From positions 640,001-704,000 of the forward strand of contig CAVRAG010000007.1 of assembly GCA_963718895.1 (NCBI GenBank): a stretch of DNA of 64,000 nucleotides, written 5' to 3'. The position numbers and the translations under genes were made by a program. The stretch's first letter is position 1, and each line of letters starts with the position of its first letter. The notes below the pieces were generated by a model that saw nothing but the letters and a program-made list of their open reading frames with translations, had not been told where the DNA came from and searched no databases. The stretch comes from an uncultured Nitrososphaerota archaeon (GTDB lineage: Archaea; Thermoproteota; Nitrososphaeria; Nitrososphaerales; Gagatemarchaeaceae). Positions 5,601 through 12,264 of the stretch are shown one piece after another.

Positions 5601-6383
5601 CTAGGTCCACCCTCCCAGTATGCCTCCGTCCACGGGCAGCGCAGCCCCCGTGACGAATGAGGATTCGTCCGAGGCGAGAAAGAGCGCCATGTTCGCGACC
5701 TCCGCGGGCGACCCTATTCGCCCCAGGGGGTGCTTCTTGATGAGATCCGCTTCGGCAGCTTCAGGGTCTGTGGCCTGGGCGAGGATGTCCCTGAGCATGG
5801 GTGTATCGATCGCGCCAGGGCAGATGCAGTTGACGCGGATATTGAACTCTGCGACGTCCATCGCGACGGCCCTCGTGAGCATGAGCACACCCCCCTTCGA
5901 TGCATCGTACGCAGCCTCCTTCTTCATCGCCATCAGGGAGTTTATCGACCCCGTGTTGATAATCACCCCCCTCTTCCTCTTTATCATGTGAGGCAGGACG
6001 TACCTCGTGCAGAGAAAGGTGCCGGTGAGGTTCGTCCCTATGACATCTGCCCATTCGGCCTCGGAGGTCTCGAGCACGGTGCCCACAGGGGAGAGAGCGG
6101 CGTTGTTGAAGAGCACGTCCACCGTCCCGAACTGTTTCACCGTCGACTCGACGAGTTTCTGCACGTCGGAGCTCTTCGATACGTCGGTCCTCACAAAGAT
6201 AGCTTCGCCGTTCTCTCTCTTGATTGCGGCGACGACCTCCCTCCCTTTCGAGGCATTGCGCCCCGCTATCACGACCCTTGAGCCTTCCCTTGCAAAGAGC
6301 ATAGCCGTCGCCCTTCCTATCCCGGAGTTCCCGCCAGTAATAATTGAGACCCGGCCTTTCAGCTTCATCGCTTCAGTTGCCAC
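5601..6383 (-). CDS. SDR family oxidoreductase
   Basis: TGGNSGIG, NNAA, YDASK, RVNCICPG and VDGG motifs. Confidence 0.95.
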   Translation of the reverse strand: MATEAMKLKGRVSIITGGNSGIGRATAMLFAREGSRVVIAGRNASKGREVVAAIKRENGEAIFVRTDVSKSSDVQKLVESTVKQFGTVDVLFNNAALSPVGTVLETSEAEWADVIGTNLTGTFLCTRYVLPHMIKRKRGVIINTGSINSLMAMKKEAAYDASKGGVLMLTRAVAMDVAEFNIRVNCICPGAIDTPMLRDILAQATDPEAAEADLIKKHPLGRIGSPAEVANMALFLASDESSFVTGAALPVDGGILGGWT

Positions 6384-6655
6384 GGCGAGGCTAAAGAAGC
6401 CTTCTGGCTGGATCGGAGGAGGCGGAGGGCCAAGAAAGCCGTCTCCAGGGCAGTCGACCGCCCTCGGGCACTTTCGCGATAGGTCGTTATCCGCCTGCGA
6501 ACATAACCCGCCATGCGCACGAGGCCGTAGAGTTCTAGGATTGACCCTAGGTAGAGAATTGTGAGGACGAGCAGCGGGACGTGGACGAAGGGGTACGCGG
6601 AGACGTCGAAGACATAGACTGCGGAAATCACGCCCTGGGCAAGCAGCAGTTTCAT
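6365..6655 (-). CDS. Small hypothetical membrane protein
   Basis: Two hydrophobic segments; fills the gap between the hxlR-like and SDR genes. Confidence 0.35.
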   Translation of the reverse strand: MKLLLAQGVISAVYVFDVSAYPFVHVPLLVLTILYLGSILELYGLVRMAGYVRRRITTYRESARGRSTALETAFLALRLLRSSQKASLASPWQLKR

Positions 6656-6703: not shown

Positions 6704-7180
6704 CTATCTTCGCTCCTTCAGTCTAGAGTCCACCGTGAGATTGACGTAGCTCCTCTCGAGGTTCTTCTGCGGGAAGACCTCCTTGACCTCCCTGGGTCTG
6801 CGGTCAGCGAAGACGCTGTCCGCGTGCCACTTCGACCCGAAGGCGAAGAAGCTCATAAGAATCGGAAGCGCATCCCACCCCTTCTCGGTGAGGCTCCATC
6901 TGACGACGTTGGCGAGATCAGTATCCACCGTCTTCTGGATGATGCCTTCCCTCTCGAGCTCCTTCAGGCGGGCCGAGAGCATCCGTGGCGTCAGACCGGG
7001 TATGCCTCTGAGAAAGTCCGAGAAGCGCTGGGCGTTCTGCATCGACATCTCCCTCAGCATCAGCAGAGTCCACTTCCTCCCGAACACCCCTAGGCTGGCA
7101 GCGATGGGGCACCCCACGATCGGGGCTTCTGTGGCTATTGGTGTCCCTTTGGTCCAGTATTCGAACGGCGAGCTTGCCAA
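6704..7180 (-). CDS. HxlR-family transcriptional regulator
   Basis: CPI..SLGVFGRKWTLL, RFSDF, LSARLKELE..G and WSLTEKG motifs. Confidence 0.9.
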   Translation of the reverse strand: MASSPFEYWTKGTPIATEAPIVGCPIAASLGVFGRKWTLLMLREMSMQNAQRFSDFLRGIPGLTPRMLSARLKELEREGIIQKTVDTDLANVVRWSLTEKGWDALPILMSFFAFGSKWHADSVFADRRPREVKEVFPQKNLERSYVNLTVDSRLKERR

Positions 7181-7335: not shown

Positions 7336-7923
7336 CTACTTGTGGAATCTTCCGAATATCCTCTTGAGGAAGCCGCCTTCCTGAGGCGAGGACTCAGCGA
7401 CCGGGACCTCCACAGTGAAGGTCTGCCGACTCGTCGACGCCTCCATAGCTGGAGCGGAAGACTGAACCTTGTCTGCGGCCTCCTGAGGAAAAGGTTGATC
7501 CTGAACTGGAGTGGCGACGAACCCTTCAGGCTCTGCGAGGGCCGGAACTTCCAGGGCGGGGGTCACTTCCACGGGTTCAGGCAGAACCGGGTCGGCCACG
7601 ACGGGCTGGGCTACAATTGTCTCGGCGAGGACTGGCGGGCTGGCGGCGTATGCCGATTCGACCTGCTCCACAGGCTCGACACTTGAGATAGCGTACCCCG
7701 GGCTTGCGGCGGTCTCTGACCTCTTTCGGAAGAAGACGTCGTTGTGAGAGTCCCGCCCCGATGTCGATACCTCGACCGATGCCCCTGTCTCGGCGATGGA
7801 GGACGAAGGAGACGCGAACCCAGAGGACTCCGGCACGGGTCCACCGGTGGTGAACGACGATGCTGCTAGCCTGCTAGACTTCCTCCGGCGCGTGAGGGGG
7901 TCGTCGCCTAAGCCTCGAGGCAA
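7336..7923 (-). CDS. ParA-coupled disordered acidic protein with C-terminal amphipathic helix
   Basis: GAGGAG 8 nt before TTG 7923, overlapping the parA stop; starts MPRGLGDDPL; S/P/E/A/V-rich body; ends EGGFLKRIFGRFHK (195 aa). Confidence 0.7.
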   Translation of the reverse strand: MPRGLGDDPLTRRRKSSRLAASSFTTGGPVPESSGFASPSSSIAETGASVEVSTSGRDSHNDVFFRKRSETAASPGYAISSVEPVEQVESAYAASPPVLAETIVAQPVVADPVLPEPVEVTPALEVPALAEPEGFVATPVQDQPFPQEAADKVQSSAPAMEASTSRQTFTVEVPVAESSPQEGGFLKRIFGRFHK

Positions 7924-8753
7924 CCCAGAATCTCCTCGGTGAGCTTCCCGTAGGCCTTCGCTCCGTTGCAATCGGAATCGTACTCGAAGATAGACTTGTG
8001 ATAGCTCGGCGCCTCGGCAAGCCTGATGTTGACAGGGATGACCGTGGTGAAGACAGGTCCGTCCGTGAAGCCCTTCCTCACCTTTGCCTCGACCTCTCTC
8101 GCCAGGAGCGTCCGTCGGTCGTACAGCGTGAGGACGGCGCCGAGTATCTCCAGGCTGGGGTTTATGTCCTCCTTCACCTTGTGGACGGTGTCCAGGAGCT
8201 GGACCACCCCCTCCATCGCGAAGTACTGCGTCTGGACCGGAATCAAGACCTGATTCGCGGCTGTGAGGGTGTTGACCGTGAGAATGCCGAGAGAAGGGGG
8301 TGTGTCGATCACGACGTAGTCGTACTCGTCTTCCTTGAGCTCCTTCAGCTTCTTCTTCAGCTTGAACTGCATGTTGATGTCGTTCGCCAGGCGAATCTGG
8401 CACGCGCTGAGGTCGCCGCTCGCAGGAGCGACGTCGAGGTTCTCCCTACAGTTCCGGATCAGCACGTCCGAGAGCGAGACCTCCTCGTCGAGGAGCAAAT
8501 CGGCTGTGGTCTTCACGATCGGGGTGTCGGGGCCGACGAGATAGTTCGTGGCATTGGCCTGCGGGTCCATGTCGATGAGCAGGACCCTCTTGCCCGCCGC
8601 GGCAAGCTGGCATGAGAAGTTTACCGTTAGGTCGGTTTTTCCGACACCGCCCTTCTGGTTGGCAACCGCGATTATCCTCGTGAACGCTCCCGTCGTGGCC
8701 GCGCCCGATGGTCCCCTACCGTGGGGCACCTTCTCCAGGGTGGTCATTGTCAA
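7908..8753 (-). CDS. parA: ParA/Soj-family ATPase
   Basis: Deviant Walker A KGGVGKT, DMDPQAN, IDTPPSLG, YDRRT and NIRLAEAPS. Confidence 0.93.
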   Translation of the reverse strand: MTMTTLEKVPHGRGPSGAATTGAFTRIIAVANQKGGVGKTDLTVNFSCQLAAAGKRVLLIDMDPQANATNYLVGPDTPIVKTTADLLLDEEVSLSDVLIRNCRENLDVAPASGDLSACQIRLANDINMQFKLKKKLKELKEDEYDYVVIDTPPSLGILTVNTLTAANQVLIPVQTQYFAMEGVVQLLDTVHKVKEDINPSLEILGAVLTLYDRRTLLAREVEAKVRKGFTDGPVFTTVIPVNIRLAEAPSYHKSIFEYDSDCNGAKAYGKLTEEILGCLEA

Positions 8754-8994: not shown

Positions 8995-10485
8995 CTATCC
9001 CTTGAGCCAGCCCAGCTTCACGAAGACGTACGTCACGAAGGACATGCTGATCACGAGCACAAGGACGACCTCCCACAGGTAACCCGAGTACGGCACGTCG
9101 AGCAGGTTCATCCCGAGCAGTCCCCCCACTGCCGAAGGGATGACCGACATGCTCGTAATTACCGCTAGGATCTTGAGTATCTTGTTGGTCTCGAAGGAGG
9201 TCTGGTTGATGTAGAGGTCGATCGTGGAGTGGATGTTGTTGACCAGGTCTTCCGCTATCTCGTTCAGGTAGGAGACCCCGTCCTGGAGCACGTGGAAGTC
9301 CTCCTCGGCCTCGCTGTCGAACCCTTCGAGGGGGACCTTCTGAGACTCTATGATGCTGAGGAGCTCCTTGAAGTGAACCAGGTTCGATACCAGCCTGGAG
9401 ACCTCCTTGTTGAGGCCGTAGACTCGCTCAAGGAAGTCTCGGGGGAGCTTGGACCGGGGGGTCCCCCCGATCCTGATCACCTCAATCTCGATGTCGGACA
9501 GCACCGACCTGTACTCCCCGAGGGTCTGATCGAGCAGCGCGTAGAGGACAGATACAACGAAGCTTGTCTCTTCCCGGCGACGCACCGACTCCATGACTCC
9601 GGAGAAGACGTCGAGCCCGTGACGGGAGACGGAGATTATCTTCCGTCCCGTGCAGATTATGATCATGCCCGAGCGAGAGATCGTCAGGAAAGCCTCGGGC
9701 CTGTCGGGGTACCTTACCTTGCCTGACTGCAAGAAGATCAGGGACACCTGCTGGACGTAGTCGACGTGCGGGAAAATCTCGTCGACCAAGTCGATTTTGA
9801 AGTGCGGCTCGGGGACCTGGACGAGCGCGCTCAGCCTCCTGACCCCCTCTTGCGTGAGGTTGCGGACGTCGAGCCACTCCTGGCTTTCGTCGACCAGATG
9901 CGACTTCAGGTCGTCCCAGGTCAGGTGGTCCGTCGCCGTGAGCGTCTGTGAATCCACGACTCGTATGACGGTCTCCACTTCCTGCCTCGATTCCAGCGCG
10001 ACGCCCTGGCTCGTCTGCATCCTGCTCCCTAGGGCCCTCCCACCCACTGCCAGCGCCCTTGGGAGCCTGAGCAACCTAAGCAACAACGAGGGTGAGCCGC
10101 GGGTACTGAGACCGAGGGCTGGAAGGTACTGAATGAACGGCAGGACGACGATCACAAGGTCGACGAGGTGCCAAGGCTCCTTGAAGTGGGCCAACCTGTC
10201 CTTTGCGAGATACAACTTCGAGGTGTACTCGGCTACGAAGAGCACAATTATCGCCCAGTCGCAGATGTCGAGGAACTCGATGGCTGACGAGGAAAGATCG
10301 ACCGCGAACGGGATGAGGATGATGGGGAGGATTGCGAAGGAGAGAAAGACCATGAACCTGTCCGAGAGGATCGAGTTGACGGTGTCCCTCAGGTTCTTCC
10401 GGGGGTCGCCTTCTGCGACGAAGAGCGACCGAGCAAGGAGACCGTTGTCCTTTGGACCACCGTCGACGTTTCCCGCATTGGACAT
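8995..10485 (-). CDS. corA: CorA-family Mg2+ channel with N-terminal voltage-sensor-like (S1-S4) domain
   Basis: Start ATG 10485; S2 LFVAEY, S3 WHLVDL, S4 RLLRLPR; then CorA soluble domain (WLDV, FPHVD), NKILKIL and the GMN signature. Confidence 0.85.
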   Translation of the reverse strand: MSNAGNVDGGPKDNGLLARSLFVAEGDPRKNLRDTVNSILSDRFMVFLSFAILPIILIPFAVDLSSSAIEFLDICDWAIIVLFVAEYTSKLYLAKDRLAHFKEPWHLVDLVIVVLPFIQYLPALGLSTRGSPSLLLRLLRLPRALAVGGRALGSRMQTSQGVALESRQEVETVIRVVDSQTLTATDHLTWDDLKSHLVDESQEWLDVRNLTQEGVRRLSALVQVPEPHFKIDLVDEIFPHVDYVQQVSLIFLQSGKVRYPDRPEAFLTISRSGMIIICTGRKIISVSRHGLDVFSGVMESVRRREETSFVVSVLYALLDQTLGEYRSVLSDIEIEVIRIGGTPRSKLPRDFLERVYGLNKEVSRLVSNLVHFKELLSIIESQKVPLEGFDSEAEEDFHVLQDGVSYLNEIAEDLVNNIHSTIDLYINQTSFETNKILKILAVITSMSVIPSAVGGLLGMNLLDVPYSGYLWEVVLVLVISMSFVTYVFVKLGWLKG

Positions 10486-10636
10486 TATCTTGGCTGACGA
10501 CCGGTGTCTAGATTGCGCTGGATAAAAACAGAGACCGTCCGATCCGCGGTCCACGGCCGGGGCGTCGGAATCCTGACCGCAGCCGACTTTCAACACCATT
10601 AATAGACCTCCGCCAAGGGGGCGCTCCCGACCCGAG

Positions 10637-11263
10637 ATGGGGCTGAGGAGCTGGCTAGTTCCGGAGGACAAGGTGTTCTTCGACCTGCTCGAGCAGGAGT
10701 CGAACAACGTCGCGAACGGGGCGAAGGTGCTCGAGGAGATGATAACTCAGTTCGACAGGCTGGAGCAGAGAAGAGCCGAGCTGAAGGAGATTGAACACAG
10801 GGGAGACGAGATAGTCCACGAGATCTACGAGAAGGTCAACTCGTCATTCGTGACGCCAATCGACCAGGACGACATAACGAAGCTCGCATCGCTCTACGAC
10901 GACGTCCTAGACTTCATGGATGCGGCCGCAAACCGCATCGTGCTCTACGAGGTGAAAGAATCGACCGAGGCCATGAAGCAGTTCGCAAGGATAGTGGCAC
11001 GCTCGGTGGCGGAGATCCACACCGCGTTCGTCGCCATGAGGCACCGTGGGGGGGACGAAATCGACCAGAAGTGCATCGAGGTTGACACCCTGGAGAACGA
11101 GGCAGATGTCATTCTGAACGACAGTGTCGCGAAACTGTTCAAGGGCAGCGACGTGATACAGATCATGAAGCTGAAGGAGATCTACGAAGAGCTGGAGATC
11201 GTGACGGACAAGTGCGAGGACGTCAGCCAGGAACTCCGGGACATCGTAAGGCGCTACACCTAG
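10637..11263 (+). CDS. DUF47/PhoU-like phosphate transport regulator
   Basis: EHRGDE, FVTPIDQDDI, LENEAD and TDKCEDV motifs; directly upstream of pit. Confidence 0.92.
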   Translation: MGLRSWLVPEDKVFFDLLEQESNNVANGAKVLEEMITQFDRLEQRRAELKEIEHRGDEIVHEIYEKVNSSFVTPIDQDDITKLASLYDDVLDFMDAAANRIVLYEVKESTEAMKQFARIVARSVAEIHTAFVAMRHRGGDEIDQKCIEVDTLENEADVILNDSVAKLFKGSDVIQIMKLKEIYEELEIVTDKCEDVSQELRDIVRRYT

Positions 11264-11274
11264 GGGCCCTCGAG

Positions 11275-12264
11275 TTGTTCACGGTCTTCGTCATAGGAAT
11301 AATAGCTGTCGCCTTCTCGTTCGACTTCGTGAACGGCTTCCATGACGCAGCCAACTCTATCTCGACCGTAATCTCCACCAGGGCGCTATCCCCCCCGGCG
11401 GCCGTCGGCCTCGCGGCGACCTTCAATTTCGTCGCTTTCCTTGTCTTCGGCTTCGCCGTTGCAAGCACGATAGGCTCCGGGATCATCGCTTCTAGCGCGA
11501 TCAACGAGTACGTCATCCTGGGGGCCCTCTTGGGTGCCATATCATGGGACCTGATCACCTGGTTCTTCGGCCTGCCCACGAGCTCCTCGCACGCGCTCAT
11601 CGGAGGGCTCATCGGAGCCGGGGTGACGGAGGCGGGCACCGGGGTCCTCGTGGTCGCGAGCCTGAGCAAGACGCTCACCTTCCTGGTCGCGTCGCCGCTG
11701 ATAGGGCTTGCAGTTGCCTTTCTCTTCATGACCCTGTTGCTCAGGGCTTTCCGACGATTCTCCGCCCGGCTCGTCAACGGATACTTTAGGAGGCTCCAGC
11801 TTCTTTCCTCGAGCCTGGTCAGCCTCGCCCACGGCAGCAACGATGCGCAGAAGACGATGGGCGTCGTGACAGCGCTGCTCGTCTCGACCGGCAACCTGTC
11901 GAAGTTTAGCGTGCCCCTCTGGGTCGCGATAATGGCCAATTCCGCCATAGCCCTTGGGACCCTGTTCGGAGGATGGAGAATCGTGAACACGATGGGCTTC
12001 AGGATCACAAAACTCGACCCGGTCCACGGATTCGCCGCTGAGACGACCGCGGCGGGGGTGATTATGACATCTTCGCTGCTCGGCATCCCGGTGAGCACGA
12101 CCCATTGCGTGAGCGGATCCATCATGGGAGTTGGCGCCACGAGGCGGCTCACAGCGGTTAGGTGGGGGGTGGCGAGGAGGATCGTGTGGGCGTGGATAAT
12201 CACGATCCCAGCATCGGCGGCGATCTCGTGCGTAGCCTACCTGGCGATAGTCCGCGTCGCCTGA
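11275..12264 (+). CDS. pit: PiT-family inorganic phosphate transporter
   Basis: GFHDAAN, PTSSSH, HGSNDAQK and PVSTTH signatures; start uncertain (TTG 11275). Confidence 0.93.
   Translation: MFTVFVIGIIAVAFSFDFVNGFHDAANSISTVISTRALSPPAAVGLAATFNFVAFLVFGFAVASTIGSGIIASSAINEYVILGALLGAISWDLITWFFGLPTSSSHALIGGLIGAGVTEAGTGVLVVASLSKTLTFLVASPLIGLAVAFLFMTLLLRAFRRFSARLVNGYFRRLQLLSSSLVSLAHGSNDAQKTMGVVTALLVSTGNLSKFSVPLWVAIMANSAIALGTLFGGWRIVNTMGFRITKLDPVHGFAAETTAAGVIMTSSLLGIPVSTTHCVSGSIMGVGATRRLTAVRWGVARRIVWAWIITIPASAAISCVAYLAIVRVA

Follow-up and report, generated by a model that had tools for sequence, protein, structure and literature searches.

A pore-less voltage-sensor domain fused to a CorA-superfamily protein in archaea and bacteria

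Can a single prokaryotic gene join a voltage sensor to a channel of the CorA superfamily and, if so, is its product gated by voltage? The question is raised by a gene on contig CAVRAG010000007.1 from an uncultured Nitrososphaerota archaeon, located in the stretch of 64,000 nucleotides (nt) that was analysed here and is called the window. An initial annotation, made from the sequence of the window, read this gene as a voltage-sensor domain (VSD) lacking S5, pore and S6, joined in frame to a complete CorA magnesium channel, and proposed an Mg2+ flux gated by membrane potential or by pH. In following it up we established the architecture of the protein, both of its folds, its topology, the conservation of its sensing residues and its membership of a large archaeal and bacterial family. 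Judging from sequences and structural models, we consider it rather probable that the protein is a CorA-type divalent-cation channel with gating biased by membrane potential.

Architecture of the fusion protein

The gene and the parts of its product are listed below, in window coordinates (TM, transmembrane helix).

8995-10485, minus strand: VSD-CorA fusion gene (P0001), ATG at 10485, stop at 8995-8997, 496 amino acids (aa)
10522-10528, minus strand: TTTTTAT, putative archaeal TATA box about 40 nt 5' of the ATG, read from the sequence
10363-10485, minus strand: residues 1-41, cytoplasmic N-terminal segment with a conserved DPR..R motif and a short pre-S1 helix (30-39)
10303-10362, minus strand: residues 42-61, S1 helix (AlphaFold2 helices, hydropathy and column counts), with no intramembrane acidic residue
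10207-10290, minus strand: residues 66-93, S2 helix (alignment and AlphaFold2), with D76, F83 (hydrophobic plug), E86 and K90
10126-10197, minus strand: residues 97-120, S3 helix (alignment and AlphaFold2), with a P-W-H-x-x-D109 motif
10015-10092, minus strand: residues 132-157, S4 helix, with R137, R140, R143 and R150 and a kink at P142
9973-10014, minus strand: residues 158-171, flexible linker from S4 to the first beta strand of the CorA domain
9196-9972, minus strand: residues 172-430, CorA cytoplasmic domain (Pfam and Foldseek), an alpha/beta N-terminal domain plus a long stalk helix
9103-9195, minus strand: residues 431-461, CorA TM1 (pore helix), with GMN at 458-460 (nt 9106-9114)
9109-9111, minus strand: residue 459, the M of GMN, a variable column in the family alignment
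9016-9090, minus strand: residues 466-490, CorA TM2, followed by a conserved KLGWLK C-terminus

The translation of 8995-10485 was unbroken by stops from S1 through the CorA C-terminus, confirming that the VSD and a complete CorA share a single frame. The motifs named in the initial annotation were all located in the translated protein, namely F83-x-x-E86 in S2 (LFVAEY), W105-x3-D109 in S3 (WHLVDL), R137, R140 and R143 in S4 (RLLRLPR), and GMN. The same open frame reaches an upstream TTG at 10707, which would give 570 aa, and a database copy of the protein (P0002) is annotated at 534 aa. Of the 120 best matches listed, 33 homologues were chosen and aligned with the window protein. Thirty of them were 476-505 aa long and the remaining three 517, 518 and 537 aa, and for all 33 the alignment started at a shared, conserved LPRSL...DPR N-terminus. 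These lengths, the common N-terminus and the position of the TTTTTAT box favour the ATG at 10485 over the TTG, and this ATG is likely to be the start.

A Pfam scan returned, as expected, a truncated Ion_trans match and a CorA match on one chain. Ion_trans (PF00520) covered residues 47-146 with profile positions 8-107 of 241, which correspond to S1-S4 (35.3 bits against a cut-off of 25). CorA (PF01544) covered residues 203-488 with positions 5-290 of 292 (110.2 bits against a cut-off of 27), close to its full length. A hydropathy scan detected hydrophobic segments only at S1, S2, S3, CorA TM1 and CorA TM2. Since the Ion_trans match ends at position 107 and no hydrophobic segment lies between S4 and CorA TM1, the protein has no S5, P-loop or S6. 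With S1-S4 and the two CorA helices, its membrane part would comprise six helices. The loops carry 0 (S1-S2), 4 (S2-S3), 1 (S3-S4) and 5 (after S4) lysines and arginines. This distribution obeys the positive-inside rule and puts the end of S4 on the cytoplasmic side, at the start of the CorA regulatory domain. Both the missing pore and this topology had been claimed in the initial annotation, and both were borne out. No nucleotide-binding domain was present in the Pfam scan of the fusion protein. A reading of the CorA part as a defence effector was rejected, as none of the PADLOC anti-phage families matched the fusion protein at E-values up to 0.01.

The identity of the N-terminus was examined both by sequence and by fold. 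A profile built from the close family was compared with solved structures, and it matched the voltage sensors of Cav3.3 (E-value 7.6e-15) and Cav3.2 (1.2e-13), Nav channels (about 1e-8), the Nav1.7 VSD4-NavAb chimera (5ek0, 4.9e-7), the Hv1 chimera 3wkv (5.7e-5) and the Ci-VSP VSD (4.2e-4). The same profile matched the M. jannaschii CorA with an E-value of 8.6e-19. The Cav3.3 and M. jannaschii matches put the two-domain assignment, as made from sequence profiles, far beyond chance. The full-length AlphaFold2 model had a mean predicted local distance difference test score (pLDDT) of 71.5 and a predicted template modelling score (pTM) of 0.53, with helices at the S1-S4 boundaries listed above and pLDDT below 50 for residues 1-26. 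Among the matches listed by Foldseek for this model there were CorA chains only. We therefore considered the VSD separately, modelling residues 25-164 from an alignment of 30 of the 33 related loci L034-L066; L036, which begins inside the VSD, L065, which has stops, and L059, whose ends match those of the retained L035, were left out. The resulting model (pLDDT 72.9) had helices at 18-37, 42-69, 73-94 and 107-135 in its own numbering, in keeping with an antiparallel bundle of four transmembrane helices. All of its 50 listed Foldseek matches were VSDs, but their E-values were weak (0.03-0.1) and none was at or below 0.001. In an exhaustive structural search against 48,161 PDB chains, ranks 1-28 were all voltage sensors with Z scores of 9.9-13.1 (for example Nav1.5 13.1, CatSper 12.9, Kv4.2 12.8, Ci-VSP 11.3 and SLC9C1 10.5), and the first match of another kind, a ClyA helical bundle, was found at rank 29 (Z 9.8). 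Since helical bundles may reach a Z score of about 13 through their arrangement alone, the fold match counts only alongside the sequence evidence, with which it agrees. Voltage sensors possess a charge-transfer centre formed by an aromatic plug and an acidic residue in S2 and an aspartate in S3. In the window protein this centre is intact (F83, E86 and D109), and three arginines of S4 stand at every third position. The N-terminus, claimed to fold as S1-S4, is thus confirmed by profile matches and a predicted fold as a genuine voltage-sensor domain.

For the CorA part, the best Foldseek match of the full-length model was to the T. maritima CorA, with an E-value of 1.2e-15 and a TM-score by target of 0.68 over 332 columns. 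In a hidden Markov model (HMM) alignment, TM1, GMN and TM2 fell on their counterparts in the CorA structures of M. jannaschii and T. maritima. Together with the nearly full-length Pfam match and the GMN motif, this agrees with a complete CorA as initially annotated.

Conservation and distribution of the family

Conservation was assessed in an alignment of 72 proteins, comprising the window protein and 71 divergent full-length representatives with 21-55% identity to it. The representatives were picked by eye from 150 listed matches, taking those with a single match running from about residue 12-47 to 492-496, and their identity goes down to 21%. The 79 other listed rows were shorter pieces, partial matches and unfused CorA-like proteins. 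CorA was matched in 72 of the 72 and Ion_trans in 68. F83 was invariant, residue 86 was acidic in 70 (65 E and 5 D) and D109 was kept in 68. In S4, R137 was found in 68, R140 in 66 and R143 in 57 proteins, and position 150 was basic in 64 (57 R and 7 K). The outer S2 position 76 was less constrained, being acidic in 43 and N or Q in 24. The arginines of S4, the conservation of which was a prediction of the initial annotation, are thus retained at identities down to 21%, and the predicted voltage-sensing residues as a whole show deep conservation. Mean pairwise identity was 0.347 in the VSD, 0.119 in the linker (151-171), 0.235 in the CorA cytoplasmic domain and 0.469 in the CorA membrane part. 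The distance from R150 to T172 varied only between 16 and 23 residues, with a median of 21. A linker with variable sequence and constrained length would fit a tether with a geometric role.

The fusion recurs in many other genomes. Both Pfam domains were found in 119 of the 120 best matches to the window protein, which were of similar length. A search with the window protein gave 272 matches at E-values of 0.001 or lower among 7,999 scored candidates, and when 1.84 billion representatives were searched exhaustively there were 959, 92 of them at or below 1e-30. A scan of one genome per species detected 34 loci, 31 of them covering both domains. By the NCBI labels of their records, these 31 comprised 15 Bathyarchaeota or Bathyarchaeia, 5 Nitrososphaerales, 4 Thermoplasmata, 1 Methanocella, 1 Methanomethylicia (also listed as Methanosuratincolia), 1 Thermoproteota and 4 unlabelled records. 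The remaining three, all labelled Bathyarchaeota, match only the last 30-44 residues. The fused records include CP170178.1 ("chromosome, complete genome") and the chromosome-level OY970286.1. With 31 named records and 71 divergent full-length representatives, the fusion is clearly not confined to the window.

A second, larger clade is at least partly bacterial. This assignment rests on six named database members, two carrying the label Planctomycetota and four that of Verrucomicrobiota or a subgroup. Both domains were again present in 119 of the 120 best matches to P0181, a representative of this clade. Another protein with a bacterial label, P0118 ("Candidatus Acidoferrales bacterium"), shares 55% identity with the window protein and clusters with archaeal sequences. 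In the ESM Atlas, four clusters with 51, 78, 89 and 222 members contain both families.

Several sequences departed from the common form. At L065, one of the 31 loci covering both domains (6025-6444 on a 453 kb contig labelled "uncultured archaeon"), there are stop codons in the VSD-linker region in the frame of the match, which could mean a pseudogene, a frameshift or a faulty assembly. L043 and L050 are on separate contigs of one Bathyarchaeota metagenome-assembled genome (MAG; AS06rmzACSIP_217), each encoding a full-length VSD-CorA that is 58% identical to the query, so some genomes may hold two copies. P0210 (649 aa), P0173 (367 aa), P0233 (558 aa) and P0216 (518 aa) possess a VSD with a partial CorA, or extra length, and are likely to be chimeric or truncated gene calls.

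The distribution is patchy. The fusion was absent from 400 sampled other genomes of the window's class, where matches were to the CorA part only (20-33% identity), and no match was obtained in the 11 other genomes of the family to which the window belongs. Among 400 other genomes of the phylum it was found in two, G672 (58% identity) and G649 (53%). The patchiness, along with mixed taxon labels among holders that are 48-85% identical, suggests horizontal spread of the fusion gene. The window's genome is a MAG of 3.13 Mb in 11 contigs, 80.5% complete and with 5.41% contamination. Its order includes many genomes of 1.3-3.9 Mb, and the closest named homologues are in MAGs labelled "Nitrososphaerales archaeon", whereas Bathyarchaeota is the label of most named genomes with the fusion. 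Either the gene looks horizontally acquired or the window's lineage looks atypical (3.1 Mb, about 60% G+C). In public DNA runs, the gene's words were found at shares of 0.09-0.26 in 8 runs from 4 studies (soil, peat, sediment and bioreactor), and no RNA run was listed as holding them. Contigs from four runs were pieces of 151-273 nt with at least 99% identity. None spans nt 9935-10013, the junction between S4 and CorA, and they are uninformative on it either way.

The CorA parts were placed in a quick maximum-likelihood tree with a midpoint root and a small outgroup, the unfused rows being drawn from the same search. The 72 fused and nine apparently unfused proteins formed one clade (Shimodaira-Hasegawa-like approximate likelihood ratio test 100), apart from eight canonical CorAs (the second CorA of the window's genome and seven from genomes of its class). 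The unfused proteins (P0155, P0205, P0209, P0227, P0241, P0246, P0263, P0264 and P0265) are 308-347 aa long and each is M-initiated. Eight of them were nested in three fused subclades, seven being paired with a single fused protein and P0265 standing in a trio with two, and P0263 branched at the base of the fused-protein clade. P0155 and P0205, the two that were scanned, had a Pfam match to CorA only. These nine proteins may represent secondary losses of the sensor or miscalled starts.

Gating by voltage and its alternatives

We suggest that the protein would form a CorA-like pentamer with five peripheral voltage sensors. S4 would move with the membrane potential and pass its movement on to the channel, biasing the closed against the open ensembles, and the uptake of Mg2+ (or Co2+/Ni2+) would then depend on voltage. 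The simplest route of coupling would be the length-constrained linker of about 21 residues, which connects the cytoplasmic end of S4 with the first strand of the CorA cytoplasmic domain. The canonical CorA channel closes when Mg2+ from the cytoplasm binds between its subunits, forming a negative-feedback loop on intracellular Mg2+, and it opens as the cytoplasmic domains move asymmetrically as rigid bodies, in coupling with the pore (PMC12933068). The linker is a plausible route for voltage because, as a tether, it would reach the very domain whose asymmetric movements gate canonical CorA. Alternatively, the VSD may be packed directly on TM2. Docking of the VSD (28-160) on the CorA stalk end and TM hairpin (400-496) scored 0.00 in both runs, a result that carries no evidential weight. 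The polarity of gating could go either way, with opening on hyperpolarisation or on depolarisation.

Several points weigh against this proposal. That the protein depends on voltage, is selective for particular ions and assembles into a pentamer is inferred. Domain placement in the full-length model is of low confidence, as seen in its pTM, and the pLDDT of linker residues 153-168 is below 50. S4 charges have been lost in a minority of the family, the first arginine being Q in 3, the second not R in 6 and the third not R in 15 of the 72 proteins; since some charges are lost, voltage sensing would not be obligatory in every member. Prokaryotic resting potentials, moreover, are very negative, and a sensor with a typical midpoint would mostly stay in one state. 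On the CorA side, the NCBIfam model TIGR00383 (corA) gave 73 bits against an equivalog cut-off of 200.75, and by this score the fusion protein is a member of the CorA superfamily and not an equivalog of characterised CorA. GMN is kept in 49 of the 72 proteins. In the other 23 the M459 column is replaced (GEN in 8, GVN in 6, GQN in 3, GSN and GIN in 2 each, and others), so the family, judged by its filter motifs, would not be uniformly one of Mg2+ channels. Selectivity probably differs among its members, and the non-GMN forms, which cluster in one subclade of the CorA tree, may have a different ion selectivity.

The alternative that survives best is that the S1-S4 bundle no longer senses voltage. 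It could be a static anchor, keeping the CorA N-terminal domain close to the membrane, a module for assembly or localisation, or a sensor of lipids or ligands, with its charges serving as structural salt bridges. The members that have lost S4 arginines at 137 or 143 retain the fusion nonetheless, the nine unfused proteins inside the fused clade indicate that the CorA part can apparently work alone, and the inter-domain geometry is not confidently predicted. On the other hand, the charge-transfer set (F83, E/D86, D109, R137 and R140) is conserved far above background at identities of 21-55%, and conservation is higher in the VSD than in the CorA cytoplasmic domain (0.347 vs 0.235). Nor would arginines at regular intervals, opposite a conserved Phe, Glu and Asp, be needed for anchoring alone. 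We consider this alternative unlikely, though worth taking seriously.

Somewhat more doubtful is a CorA-superfamily transporter with another substrate or direction (ZntB-like for Zn2+, or of an efflux type) that would still be controlled by the VSD. Such an effector would fit the varied GxN motif and the missed equivalog cut-off. It would also fit the HMM alignment of T. maritima D253 with the hydrophobic V399, a column that is acidic in only 4 of the 72 proteins. D89, which like D253 belongs to the regulatory cytoplasmic Mg2+ sites of T. maritima CorA, is placed on I231 by the HMM alignment. However, at about 18% identity the register of this alignment is uncertain by about a helical turn, and the nearby position 402 is D or E in 53. 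The window protein and its close relatives retain GMN, and among solved structures the window protein is closest in sequence to the Mg2+ channels of M. jannaschii and T. maritima. We therefore regard a different substrate or direction as improbable for the window protein.

It is more improbable still that the VSD itself conducts, as an Hv1-like proton pore or an omega pore, with coupling of H+ to Mg2+ or sensing of pH. Hv1 also carries three S4 arginines, like the three regularly spaced ones found here, and the family profile does match 3wkv. The matches to Nav, Cav and Kv sensors were stronger than that to Hv1, though, and F83, the hydrophobic plug, never varies. Across the 72-protein alignment, positions 45-62 of S1 are hydrophobic and include no conserved acidic residue, whereas Hv1 needs an acidic selectivity residue in mid-S1 (PMC3840923). 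Of the initial interpretation, then, the structural part stood, a pore-less S1-S4 VSD fused in frame to a complete CorA, and the pH alternative is disfavoured. Finally, that two separate genes were joined by mistake during assembly or gene calling has next to no probability, since, even though the source of the fusion is a MAG and no public-run contig bridges the junction, the frame is open from S1 to the CorA C-terminus and the single-chain layout recurs in 31 independently assembled named records, CP170178.1 and OY970286.1 among them, and in nearly all best matches of both searches, by which this explanation is effectively refuted.

Genomic setting, known counterparts and significance

The main neighbours of the fusion gene in the window are as follows.

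10637-12264, plus strand: DUF47 (PhoU_div) and PiT (PHO4) phosphate transporter, divergent from the VSD-CorA gene with a shared intergenic region
7908-8753, minus strand: ParA/MinD-type ATPase (AAA_31, E-value 2.3e-57), downstream of the fusion on the same strand
6704-7180, minus strand: HxlR-type regulator, downstream of the fusion on the same strand

An alpha/beta hydrolase gene is also among the neighbours, and the TTTTTAT box lies in the intergenic region common to the fusion gene and the divergent DUF47-PiT genes. No gene neighbourhood was conserved across the family in the 33 other loci. The DUF47-PiT pair recurred in only one of them, L037, which holds a 70% identical homologue; ParA was found again at two loci, L036 and L037, and HxlR at one, L036. 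The commonest neighbours were topoisomerase VI subunits A (12 loci) and B (9 loci), most simply explained as inherited synteny. In six other loci, a different PhoU-domain gene (AbrB/MazE-PhoU) was found just downstream of the fusion, for example at 7512-8624 in L047. The PhoU and PiT neighbours may reflect a link between Mg2+ and phosphate, or they may be a coincidence.

Besides the fusion, the window's genome contains a single CorA-family gene, in unfused form (C3:2671-3555), and Ion_trans matches nothing else in it. An unfused CorA-family gene was present in all three of the fusion-bearing genomes examined, and MgtE in one of the three. With an unfused CorA alongside in each of these genomes, the fusion is an accessory paralogue, which suggests a specialised rather than a housekeeping role.

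Among known systems, the fusion protein resembles Ci-VSP in having a pore-less S1-S4 domain with the C-terminus of S4 linked to a cytoplasmic effector, and the Ci-VSP VSD (4g7v) matched the VSD model with a root-mean-square deviation of 3.5 over 128 residues (Z 11.3). Unlike in Ci-VSP, the effector is the channel-forming CorA and not a phosphatase, the expected assembly is pentameric, and the unconserved linker of about 21 residues differs from the phosphatase linker of voltage-sensing phosphatases. SLC9C1 (sNHE) is similar in that a VSD was added to a transport protein of unrelated fold, giving it voltage control (SpSLC9C1 VSD, 8pcz, Z 10.5). The VSD of SLC9C1 comes after the transporter domain and works with a cyclic-nucleotide-binding domain as part of a dimer, whereas here the VSD precedes the CorA channel and a nucleotide-binding domain is lacking. 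Coupling of S4 to CorA would be analogous in principle to that in Ci-VSP and SLC9C1.

With the canonical CorAs of T. maritima and M. jannaschii the protein shares the cytoplasmic alpha/beta domain, stalk helix, TM1, GMN loop, TM2 and basic C-terminus. It differs from them by an extra 170 N-terminal residues of VSD and linker, and its CorA part is in a clade apart from the eight canonical CorAs sampled. Ion_trans channels (KvAP, NavAb, Cav and Nav) possess the same S1-S4 module and hallmark residues, and Nav, Cav and Kv sensors were the best structural and sequence matches of its VSD. Unlike these channels, it has no S4-S5 linker, S5, P-loop or S6, and its pore is from another, pentameric superfamily. 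Hv1, too, has three arginines in S4 of its VSD and lacks a separate P-loop pore, but the fusion protein lacks the mid-S1 acidic residue, has an invariant plug and has a separate CorA pore.

The initial annotation knew of no characterised VSD-CorA. Consistent with this, full-text literature searches, mostly covering work outside subscription journals, found no description of a VSD joined to CorA. A 2023 review names channels, Ci-VSP and sNHE (PMC10651576). The existence of the family is not new, as both domains have been recorded by automatic annotation, which names one member "CorA-like Mg2+ transporter protein/Ion transport protein", and by the Atlas clusters. What appears to be new is the recognition of the Ion_trans part as a complete and constrained voltage sensor, apparently never studied. 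We give an even chance to a broader reading, that the protein is the founding member of a class of voltage-gated divalent-cation channels, in which five S1-S4 sensors would control a pentameric, non-P-loop CorA pore and which gene transfer would have carried among archaea of soil and sediment and among bacteria labelled Verrucomicrobiota or Planctomycetota.

The systems known to be under VSD control are tetrameric P-loop channels, a phosphatase, a proton path and a single Na+/H+ exchanger. If a VSD naturally controls a CorA pentamer, this would be a further solution to the coupling problem, with a different symmetry and a different gate. To our knowledge, such control of a pentameric channel by a VSD would have no natural precedent, and the protein would be the first dedicated voltage-gated Mg2+ channel. 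It would also be an attractive system for studying how S4 is coupled to an unrelated effector, being a small prokaryotic protein whose partner fold has been solved many times, and the family offers natural controls in its neutralised S4 charges, its nested unfused relatives and its altered GxN filters. Canonical CorA is understood as regulated by cytoplasmic Mg2+ only. If our suggestion is correct, Mg2+ uptake through the fusion protein would be tied directly to the energisation state of the membrane, and some uncultured archaea and bacteria would link the uptake of divalent cations to their membrane potential.

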